This document shows, one piece after another, positions 61,594-62,944 of a DNA stretch of 64,000 nt. Below the pieces are notes generated by a model, which saw nothing but the letters and a program-made list of their open reading frames with translations, ran no database searches and was not told where the DNA came from. This DNA is from Shigella phage vB_SboM_Phaginator: the sequence record OL615012. One strand, 5' to 3'. Within the stretch, counting starts at the first letter, position 1. Every line of letters begins with the position of its first letter. The position numbers were made by a program, and so were the translations under genes.

Positions 61594-62172
61594 TTAGGAA
61601 TTACGGGCTGCATTAGCAACGGCGTAAGCGTACTGGACATTAGCGTCTTTAAACGTACCTTTAGAGGTATCTATTTCTGCCTTAAAGCCGCCTTTAGCCA
61701 TAACATCGGCAAATTCTTTACGGAAAGCCATTGCATCAAGACCTTTCCATGATGATTTATGCTTGGCAAATTCAAGACCAGCGTAGTTGACAGCCTTAGC
61801 TAATTTATTATCAATAACCCATTTACCGGCTTTAGGCACAAACTTCGGGCCTTTTTGTTTAGAGAACAGTTTTAAATTCCAGCGACGAAGGTCACTGTCG
61901 GCTTTAACAAAAGCTGCGTCTAAGTTACTAGCAACAACATCTTCAATATGAGCAAATTTAAGTCCGTCAACTTCAATATTTAGATCGTTACGCCAGCGAA
62001 GTCCTTCCCAAGCGAAGGCTTTAAAGTCGGAAGCCTTTGTAGCTAAGTACCGTTCAATAGGAGCTGTTTTAGGGTCAAAGCCGTTTCCCGATCGGTAGGT
62101 CCACTCATCTTTATTAATGCCTTTGGCCTTTACTATAGAAGCTTCGGCAATAAATTCTTGATAGGTTTTCAT
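61594..62172 (-). CDS. ipIII: internal protein, IPIII-like (capsid targeting sequence)
   Basis: 192-aa basic ORF beginning MKTYQEFIAEA, the T4 internal-protein targeting sequence; T4 IPIII ~194 aa. Confidence 0.75.
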   Translation of the reverse strand: MKTYQEFIAEASIVKAKGINKDEWTYRSGNGFDPKTAPIERYLATKASDFKAFAWEGLRWRNDLNIEVDGLKFAHIEDVVASNLDAAFVKADSDLRRWNLKLFSKQKGPKFVPKAGKWVIDNKLAKAVNYAGLEFAKHKSSWKGLDAMAFRKEFADVMAKGGFKAEIDTSKGTFKDANVQYAYAVANAARNS

Positions 62173-62200
62173 GTGTTTCCTTGTTTGTTTTGATAGAGTA

Positions 62201-62230
62201 ATTATACCATATTAATACTTAAGCGTAAAC
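62201..62230 (-). promoter_or_regulatory. T4-type early promoter
   Basis: Minus strand GTTTAC-18 nt-TGGTATAAT upstream of the IPIII-like gene. Confidence 0.7.
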
Positions 62231-62233
62231 CGT

Positions 62234-62494
62234 TTAAGCTTTACCGCCAGAAATAATTCCGAAGTTGTTAAAATCATATCCAATATCGTCAACATCTACT
62301 TTAGGACTTGCTACAGCATAAGCAATTTCACTACGTTTTGCACAGGTGTTGATTTCTTTACCATCGCCACCTAAGAAAGAATACCCATTACGTTTTAATG
62401 AGCCAAAGTCTTCCGCATCACCAATGAAAGCTTTAACTTTAAATTTAGAACCTTTGGCATCTGCTTCAACGATAAATTCTTGATACATTTTCAT
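62234..62494 (-). CDS. internal protein, IPII-like (capsid targeting sequence)
   Basis: 86-aa ORF beginning MKMYQEFIVEA. Confidence 0.65.
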   Translation of the reverse strand: MKMYQEFIVEADAKGSKFKVKAFIGDAEDFGSLKRNGYSFLGGDGKEINTCAKRSEIAYAVASPKVDVDDIGYDFNNFGIISGGKA

Positions 62495-62500
62495 TTTTCC

Positions 62501-62604
62501 TTAGTAAATTGATTTACCAAAGTATTTGTACCAAGTCGGACGTTGATCAATTTTTTCATCTAAGCGTGCTTGATTTATCGCAATGGACGCTTCGGACGGG
62601 TCAT
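62501..62604 (-). pseudogene. denV: denV (endonuclease V) deletion remnant
   Basis: ATG after GGAGG encodes MTRPKRPLR then stop; a second frame reads [30 protein letters not shown], matching the T4 endonuclease V C-terminus as recalled. Confidence 0.6.
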
Positions 62605-62631
62605 AATTTCCTCCAAGTAGTTGATGAATGT

Positions 62632-62661
62632 ATAGTATCAAAACCCTTGGAGGAAGTAAAC
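62632..62661 (-). promoter_or_regulatory. T4-type early promoter upstream of the denV remnant
   Basis: Minus strand GTTTAC-18 nt-TACTAT, then GGAGG and the remnant ATG. Confidence 0.55.
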
Positions 62662-62662
62662 A

Positions 62663-62944
62663 CTATTTTTCTGAAGCGCCTGAAATATATTTTTCAAGAC
62701 GTTGTTTCATTAGCGAGCCGTTCTTAGCGATTTCTTCTGGTTTATCGCACATACGCAACAAGGCTTCAAGCTTAACGATATCGCTGGTACGTTCAAATTT
62801 GCGAGTATCTATCTTACTAGCAAGTTCAGAAATACGTGCTAATAGACTTTCAGCTTCAACCAAAGCTGCACCTAGCTTAGTTGCAAATGTGTCAGTAGCT
62901 TCGTTAAGAATAGATTCTGATAAAAATTCACTATATGTTTTCAT
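62663..62944 (-). CDS. internal-protein-like ORF (~93 aa) with targeting-sequence-like N-terminus
   Basis: Trimmed to [11 protein letters not shown]...; its ATG overlaps the e stop (ATGA). Confidence 0.55.

Follow-up and report, generated by a model that had tools for sequence, protein, structure and literature searches.

The internal proteins (IPs) of the T-even phages are head proteins, and their packaging, trimming and injection in T4 are known from the work of the Black laboratory. Two hypervariable IP loci, the stretch from e to vs.8 among them, were reportedly recognised in the T-even phages by Repoila in 1994, a picture that is said to have been extended between 2007 and 2014 by Comeau in 2007, Arbiol in 2010 and Comeau again in 2014. 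The subject of the present study is one such locus, at positions 61594-62944 of a 64,000-nucleotide stretch of Shigella phage vB_SboM_Phaginator (sequence record OL615012), which is called the window below. Its source is a T4-like coliphage (Tequatrovirus), and the positions in question are the variable block of genes enclosed by e and vs.8, in which an earlier inspection of the DNA (the original prediction) had noticed three open reading frames (ORFs) with targeting-type N-termini and a remnant of denV. Sequence features, homologies, junctions and the distribution among phages were analysed and compared with the closest described systems. We consider it quite probable that this is an exchanged IP block which codes for three packaged, gp21-trimmed and injected anti-defence proteins and contains an inactivated denV.

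The mechanism of packaging and processing of the T4 IPs has been reviewed (PMC9026906), and the mutagenesis by Mullaney and Black covered in that review assigns positions 4 and 7 of the precursor to targeting and positions 8 and 10 to processing. As to their function, Silas et al. (2025; PMC12373910) reported that each of the T4 proteins Ip1, Ip2 and Ip3 inhibits one GmrSD-type type IV restriction system of its own, without cross-protection, Ip3 being the inhibitor of the ECOR17-type GmrS1/GmrSD2 and Ip2 (IpII) that of the ECOR21-type GmrSD/BrxU enzyme. According to Srikant et al., ipIII is required for plating on ECOR17, and plasmid-borne ipIII without the targeting sequence works in trans. 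New anti-restriction targets of variant IPs, as also suggested in the original prediction, are by now a published working hypothesis (PMC12373910), which we regard as reasonable. The number of known IP variants is put at more than 30 (PMC2839356), and PeSL-like promoter/stem-loop elements have been described at both IP loci (Arbiol et al., Comeau et al., crediting Repoila et al., 1994; PMC2839356, PMC4122927). The Ip names used here follow the annotations in GenBank and UniProt as well as later papers.

One line of evidence for an IP locus lies in the N-termini. When the window is translated in all six frames, there are five matches to the motif MK[TMSA][YF]x[ETD]F as opposed to 0.02 expected from shuffles, and three of the five belong to the ORFs named here ip93, ip86 and ipIII according to protein length or homology. 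All three lie between e and vs.8, as expected of an internal-protein locus, and each has Y4, F7, I/L8 and E10 (MKTYQEFIAEA in the 192-residue and MKMYQEFIVEA in the 86-residue protein); the coordinates, lengths and N-terminal sequences originally given for them were all correct on re-checking. Single (L/I)xE motifs are found at residues 8-10 of ipIII and ip86, with predicted cleavage (marked by a slash) at IAE10/A and IVE10/A, respectively. Four such motifs are present in ip93, namely LSE10, LNE15, LVE30 and ISE40 (starting at residues 8, 13, 28 and 38), so that the predicted cleavage is at LSE10/S or at the family-conserved LNE15/A. Since E15 is invariant in the alignment of the Ip5 family, to which ip93 belongs, and position 10 is variable (some members have V or K there), LNE15/A is probably the conserved site at which ip93 is processed, and the candidate propeptide up to E15 may be likened to the 19-residue propeptide of T4 IPI. 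From the analogy to T4 we infer that the three proteins are packaged, cleaved and injected: in each precursor, residues 1-10 (1-15 in ip93) would be the targeting sequence that draws the protein into the prohead scaffolding core, the prohead protease gp21 would cut it off after (L/I)-x-E, and mature IPIII (about 20 kDa), ip86 (about 8 kDa) and ip93 (8.6-9 kDa) would be retained in the head and injected along with the DNA. A literature search returned no proteomic report for homologues of ip86 or ip93, the queries for Ip4, Ip5 and Ip7 being dominated by papers on inositol phosphates.

The ORF originally described as IPIII-like codes for a full-length orthologue of T4 IPIII, with 94.3% identity over all 192 amino acids (E = 1.5e-139) and a match to phrog_5341 (E = 1.2e-117). 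It shares with the T4 protein the identical 10-residue targeting sequence, the IAE/A site and the PHROG, and differs from it by 11 substitutions and a C-terminus that is one residue shorter. The gene itself differs in its surroundings, as it is the last of the block and adjoins vs.8, whereas T4 ipIII is the first and adjoins e, and it has another promoter that lacks a strong stem-loop. Because of the 94% identity to the tested T4 Ip3, this IPIII very probably inhibits ECOR17-type GmrS1/GmrSD2 type IV restriction as the T4 protein does; the functions of the other two proteins are ones that we infer. Neither Pfam nor NCBIfam gave a match for ip93, ip86 or ipIII, PDB sequence searches with IPIII and with the ip93 and ip86 profiles gave no significant match, and a word-indexed search of 5.8 billion proteins returned only close T4-like relatives.

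The 93-residue protein had been called IP-like, which is right in so far as it is an IP with a targeting sequence, and it can be placed more precisely in the Ip5 family, which has long had this name. It matches phrog_3499 over profile positions 1-85 of 85 (E = 1.2e-46), as T2 Ip5 matches the same PHROG, and shows 48-52% identity to the aligned Ip5 family members including those of T2 and RB70, while its similarity to T4 IPI, IPII and IPIII is limited to the first 11-23 residues. Common to ip93 and the RB69ORF127c-like Ip5 proteins of T2, T6, RB14, RB32 and RB70 are the core motifs KLG.AL.EAE.L..RI.ELA and EIAKNG..MK.RLE and the (I/L)xE15 site; GenBank annotation already ties Ip5 to “RB69ORF127c”, the label of the ip93 homologue in phage ime09. 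However, Ip5 is encoded in the other IP locus (57B to trna.4) with its own intergenic region, whereas ip93 belongs to the e locus, where its start overlaps the stop codon of e, its C-terminus is 9 residues longer and its isoelectric point (pI) is near neutral. The Ip5 family is found in 496 phage records by tblastn, and proteins at least 80% identical to ip93 in 238, with e always adjoining. Compared with the homologues of G8, phiC120 and ime09, ip93 shows synonymous changes only, and with those of JK36 and JK45 one replacement each; with a ratio of nonsynonymous to synonymous substitution rates (dN/dS) of 0-0.07, the gene is under very strong purifying selection and almost invariant across genera. 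The protein is 99-100% identical between phages assigned to Tequatrovirus and to Mosigvirus (JK36, phiC120), which indicates either a recent horizontal exchange of the cassette or an inconsistent taxonomy.

The likeness of the 86-residue protein to IPII, as originally proposed, proved to be positional only. Like T4 IpII (Ip2), ip86 occupies the slot beside ipIII and has a near-identical targeting sequence (MKMYQEFIVE vs. MKTYQEFIAE), but the match to T4 IPII covers residues 1-19 and there is no similarity past residue 19. T4 IPII belongs to phrog_7857, which is not matched by ip86, whereas ip86 matches phrog_35655 (E = 3.8e-25) and phrog_2667 (E = 2.3e-18). T2 Ip7 also matches phrog_2667 (E = 5e-41); a direct BLASTP comparison of ip86 with T2 Ip7 is marginal (E = 0.011, 33% identity over 42 amino acids). 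On the basis of these profile matches, ip86 is assigned to another family of targeting-sequence proteins and not to IPII. It is present in 217 phage records, and an exhaustive profile search among 1.8 billion representatives returned small targeting-type proteins (starting with MQTFHEFLVE, MKTYNEFIAE, MKSFDQYIME, MKTFQEFINE or MKTYAEFLAE), the distant ip86-like targeting-sequence proteins sharing the core GDAEDF..(K/R)NGY.F. Three repeat proteins from the ip86 profile search (P0028, P0029 and P0032; E = 7e-6 to 7e-4) were regarded as repeat or compositional matches. A metagenomic protein of 194 amino acids (P0026) combines the targeting sequence MKSFDQYIME and an ip86-like core with an unrelated C-terminal domain of about 100 residues, which suggests that fusions of the ip86 module with other cargo are possible.

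In the host cell, the three proteins would most likely serve as first-response anti-defence proteins, the IPIII orthologue against ECOR17-type GmrS1/GmrSD2 and ip93 and ip86 against other variants of modification-dependent restriction or against other defences. For the latter two, an anti-defence role is the best hypothesis by analogy with the T4 IPs. The more specific proposal that ip93 and ip86 are injected inhibitors of further host defences, for example of GmrSD or modification-dependent nuclease subtypes beyond the 15 groups screened so far, is put forward tentatively, as a possibility to which we give somewhat less than an even chance. Several observations weigh against such a role. In the screen of Silas et al., ip4-10, which include Ip5 as the nearest named relative of ip93, showed no reproducible inhibition of 15 GmrSD groups (PMC12373910). 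In their mature form, ip86 and ip93 have a near-neutral pI (6.3-8.1) as opposed to the basic T4 IPs (pI 9.0-9.7), and the two internal (L/I)xE motifs of ip93, which are conserved in T2 Ip5, would possibly allow the protein to be cut into peptides. The AlphaFold model of ip93 is a helical bundle (predicted local distance difference test, pLDDT, of 79), for which Foldseek found no match in the PDB with E < 4 and only designed helical bundles as neighbours. The model of ip86 is strand-rich, unreliable (pLDDT 50) and too poor for a structure search.

Some of these points would be explained if ip93, ip86 or both were packaged but acted inside the head as accessories of the scaffold core, in DNA packing, or as peptides like those of gp22, gp67 and gp68. 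The four (L/I)xE motifs of ip93 with their two conserved internal ones, the simple helical bundle lacking an enzyme-like neighbour and the missing GmrSD target for ip4-10 fit this explanation, as do the strong purifying selection and near invariance across genera, which are unlike those of an arms-race protein, and the assembly defects described for T4 IPIII mutants (PMC9026906). However, all three T4 IPs of known function are anti-restriction proteins, and the IP genes are dispensable and patchily distributed among close relatives, which is unexpected for assembly factors. Moreover, proteins that are not basic are poor counter-ions for DNA. We therefore regard a role inside the head as unlikely and keep the anti-defence role as the preferred reading for both proteins.

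Further points against a defence-related function concern ip86 alone and show that it may be dispensable. Compared with its closest relatives in G8 and JK36, it has 3-4 nonsynonymous and no synonymous changes, and its gene is frameshifted or split in Lutter, UFV13, FL44, Pu-Krd-SF7 and SF2-1, that is, it has repeatedly been inactivated in nature. In Lutter, a 1-bp insertion in a run of T divides the gene into two ORFs (L003, 3825-4080), and two-piece matches were also obtained in FL44, Pu-Krd-SF7 and SF2-1. A residue 51 that is Cys here and in G8, as opposed to Tyr or His in the other aligned homologues, can be added to the changes and broken alleles which favour the view that ip86 is a decaying gene without function, whose targeting-type 5' end persists only as a patch for recombination. 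Yet the ORF is intact here and has a Shine-Dalgarno sequence of its own (AAGGA), and at the larger distances of phiC120 and JK45 its dN/dS is 0.12-0.34. Furthermore, the core motif GDAEDFG..KRNGY.F is invariant across the homologues of Tequatrovirus, Mosigvirus, Gaprivervirus and Salmonella phages and recognisable in the distant targeting-sequence proteins. Decay is thus an improbable explanation, and the dN/dS values together with the frameshifts in relatives argue for a gene under long-term constraint that is nevertheless dispensable.

With regard to gene order, the original prediction stated correctly that the locus differs from T4: the order here is e, ip93, denV remnant, ip86, ipIII, vs.8 as opposed to e, ipIII, ipII, denV, vs.8 in T4 (Table 1). 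What did not stand is the view of this order as an unusual rearrangement, because the order e, ip93, denV, ip86, followed by ipIII or another ip gene, is common to many Tequatrovirus and Mosigvirus genomes. Between e and vs.8, T4 has ipIII, ipII and denV, and T2, RB14 and RB32 have ip4 only. In this or the equivalent interval, ime09 carries ip93, denV and ip4; JK45 carries ip93, denV and ip86; JK36 (Mosigvirus) carries ip93, denV, ip86 and Ip10; Lutter and phiC120 carry ip93, denV, ip86 and ipIII; and UPEC01 (Gaprivervirus) carries denV, another ip gene, an ip86-like and an ipIII-like gene. The ipIII-to-vs.8 junction of the window occurs in at least 54 records, and the e-to-ipIII junction of the T4 type in 177. 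Over 2.1 kb (61400-63500), the window is 98.6-98.7% identical to the Escherichia phages 235Ecol030PP, vB_EcoM_G8 and vB_Eco-B1.1, with 889 phage records matching, and G8, 235Ecol030PP and B1.1 share a near-identical locus with the same deletion junction in denV. The arrangement is thus already known, going by the near-identical genomes deposited and by the proteins present in public databases as internal head proteins.

Table 1. Features of the region from nudE to vs.8 in the window.
Feature	Position	Strand	Description or evidence
nudE	63921-63466	minus	151 aa
e (T4 lysozyme)	62941-63429	minus	162 aa; 95% identity to T4 e; Pfam Phage_lysozyme, E = 1.8e-13
ip93, targeting-sequence ORF	62663-62944	minus	93 aa; Ip5 family
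denV promoter and stem-loop	62608-62661	minus	Motif scan, fold, comparison with T4 and Lutter
denV pseudogene	62501-62604	minus	Alignment to Lutter; phrog_1183 profile; translation
ip86, targeting-sequence ORF	62234-62494	minus	86 aa; phrog_35655 / phrog_2667
ipIII early promoter	62201-62230	minus	GTTTAC-N18-TATAAT; motif scans; Lutter equivalent
ipIII, targeting-sequence ORF	61594-62172	minus	192 aa; T4 IPIII orthologue
vs.8	60885-61475	minus	196 aa; 82% protein identity to T4 Vs.8; phrog_1488
vs.8 and upstream region, conserved right-hand flank	60885-61565	minus	blastn block 60500-61565, 91% to T4

The conserved flanking genes nudE, e and vs.8 show 91-95% DNA identity to T4, and the variable block between them is limited by the e stop codon on one side and on the other by the base adjoining the T4 denV stop codon, which corresponds to position 61565, where T4 homology resumes. 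Within the block, homology to T4 breaks in the last 11 nt of e, at the stop codon of ipIII, at 10 nt before the ATG of that gene and at the base beside the T4 denV stop codon. Inversion or transposition was rejected as the origin of the order; since all genes keep their orientation and the homology breaks exactly at gene boundaries, the replacement of cassettes is the better explanation. The Shine-Dalgarno and targeting-sequence stretches of the genes cross-match one another at 80-95% over 42-49 bp, and according to the discussion in PMC2839356, patches of 42-49 bp with such identity suffice for homologous recombination in T4. These patches, together with promoter/stem-loop elements, would be the likely substrates of a cassette exchange at gene boundaries. 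With its alternative targeting-sequence genes inside fixed flanks, exchanged at the boundaries of genes, the locus resembles the hypervariable IP loci and PeSL cassettes of the T-even phages, from which it shows no difference in kind, the window representing one allele.

The exchange also affects the end of e, whose protein terminates in ...TGTWKAYI here (162 amino acids; window 62941-62960) as opposed to ...TGTWDAYKNL in T4 (164 amino acids), the last codons differing where the ip93 cassette begins. Because the 3' end of e belongs to the exchanged cassette, the start of ip93 overlaps the e stop codon, an overlap that had been noticed before and consists of an ATGA shared by the ATG of ip93 and the TGA of e. 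The length of 93 amino acids is counted from this ATG; a version of 98 amino acids in the list of ORFs starts at a TTG upstream of it.

The remnant of denV proved to be one, with only the two ends of the gene left by an out-of-frame deletion. T4 endonuclease V is a pyrimidine-dimer glycosylase whose catalytic N-terminal region comprises the amino group of Thr2 and Glu23. Aligned to phage Lutter, which has the same locus with an intact denV, the window lacks 310 bp directly after the ATGAC of the gene (at about 62600/62599). The promoter, the Shine-Dalgarno sequence and the ATG (62604) are kept, but the frame shift leaves a 9-codon ORF (62604-62575) that reads MTRPKRPLR and then stops. The final 37-38 codons are still present, out of frame, up to the old stop at 62501-62503 and match positions 102-138 of 139 of the phrog_1183 profile (E = 8e-8). 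An intact DenV ORF of about 138 amino acids including the catalytic N-terminal region was not found, codons 1-2 and the last 37-38 remaining in different frames. In Lutter, the segment that is deleted here is bordered at either end by the sequence AATTATG, which points to a microhomology-mediated deletion; T4 readily deletes between microhomologies of 6-10 bp (Srikant et al.). The gene would accordingly have been lost through a 310-bp deletion between the two AATTATG copies.

The identical deletion junction is found as an uninterrupted match in 16 records from about 14 distinct phages, and about 200 others have an intact denV. The phages with this junction are G8, G4498, BF15, 235Ecol030PP, B1.1, F27, JM10, JM17, FL12, FL18, FL23, FL44 and Shinka. 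It represents either one allele spread by recombination or a recurrent hotspot of slippage. The junction also bears on the question of whether the odd order and the truncated denV could be an artefact of assembly or sequencing of this genome. Nothing was found in favour of this explanation, which is refuted by the occurrence of the exact denV junction in phages from different laboratories and of the ipIII-to-vs.8 junction in the records mentioned above; in addition, the same order is present in independently sequenced genomes, and we give an artefact practically no credence. With the denV-negative phages T2, RB14 and RB32, the locus has in common that endonuclease V is gone from between e and vs.8. 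However, the gene is wholly absent in those phages, where only ip4 lies in the interval, whereas both of its ends remain here.

Two of the three ORFs had been credited with early promoters of their own, which holds for ipIII only. Its near-consensus T4 early promoter (GTTTAC-N18-TATAAT with a TGG extended -10 element, 62230-62201; 10/12 in the generic scan) lies directly upstream of the gene. The second promoter is that of denV (GTTTAC at 62661-62656, N18, TACTAT at 62637-62632), which is now located 138 nt upstream of the ip86 ATG and, as a result of the denV deletion, would now serve ip86. No promoter of its own was found for ip93. Promoters are annotated in Lutter at positions equivalent to those of both denV and ipIII. 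The denV promoter lies inside a stem-loop with arms at 62655-62646 and 62617-62608, in which TTCCTCCAAG pairs with CTTGGAGGAA (-19.1 kcal/mol, z = -2.7); the 3' arm contains the denV Shine-Dalgarno sequence and the 5' arm adjoins the -35 element. A promoter within a hairpin is likewise found upstream of denV, ipII and ipIII in T4. The element is a PeSL-like cassette boundary, whereas the ipIII promoter of the window has no significant stem-loop (z = -1.2) and is not a PeSL. The minus strand of the whole window has 16 copies of the T4 early motif GTTTAC-N16-18-TAnnnT and the plus strand has one, as opposed to 2.1 expected for both strands, a bias that fits the uniform gene orientation of the early region. 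A generic sigma-70 promoter scan was discarded, as its 9 hits against 9.8 expected are at chance level and the T4-specific GTTTAC motif alone is informative.

Two late promoters precede e (TATAAATA at 63463 and 63450). Since ip93 lacks its own promoter and its start overlaps the stop codon of e, it is presumably expressed from these, and judging from the gene layout its translation should be coupled to that of e and its expression should follow these late promoters. Such late timing would suit a protein that is packaged into the head. The three genes would thus be wired differently, ip93 together with e to late promoters, ip86 to the early promoter of denV and ipIII to its own early promoter.

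The right-hand flanking gene vs.8 is frameshifted at its N-terminus relative to T4 (61427-61539, minus strand): a GTG-initiated ORF of 33 amino acids (61539-61438) matches residues 1-32 of T4 Vs.8, and the main ORF begins anew at either 61475 or 61427, the latter being the start annotated in G8. In T2, vs.8 is present in two fragments, and the gene seems to be decaying in several lineages. On the plus strand, ORFs of 114, 102, 72 and 54 amino acids run across the locus, opposite to the orientation of all neighbouring genes, and gave no PHROG match; Rfam gave no match within 60500-64000. At a distance from the locus, a homologue of gp61.1 (54 amino acids, window 17558-17722, minus strand), directly upstream of the primase gene 61 and beside the tifA/dmd region, starts with MKTYKEFIKE/D, an N-terminus of the capsid-targeting type that includes an (I)xE site, and T4 gp61.1 starts with MKTFKEFIKE. 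No paper mentioning gp61.1 was found in the literature search. The literature confines IP genes to two loci, and as a weaker addition to the results above, this N-terminus could mark a packaged protein beyond them.

The presence of the same denV deletion allele in about 14 isolates means that ultraviolet repair is readily lost in nature and that microhomology deletion shapes this locus. The locus itself adds little as a discovery, and the question of which targets the Ip5-like and ip86-like proteins have is not specific to the window; its value is that of a pointer to orphan IPs. After the 2025 result on Ip1, Ip2, Ip3 and the GmrSD systems, such orphan IPs, here the Ip5 and ip86 families, are obvious candidates for new anti-defence specificities, and ip93 is a good first candidate in the search for targets because of its near invariance and strong purifying selection. 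If ip93 and ip86 are indeed injected inhibitors of further host defences, phages with ip93, ip86 and ipIII would have a host range among wild E. coli that T4 lacks.

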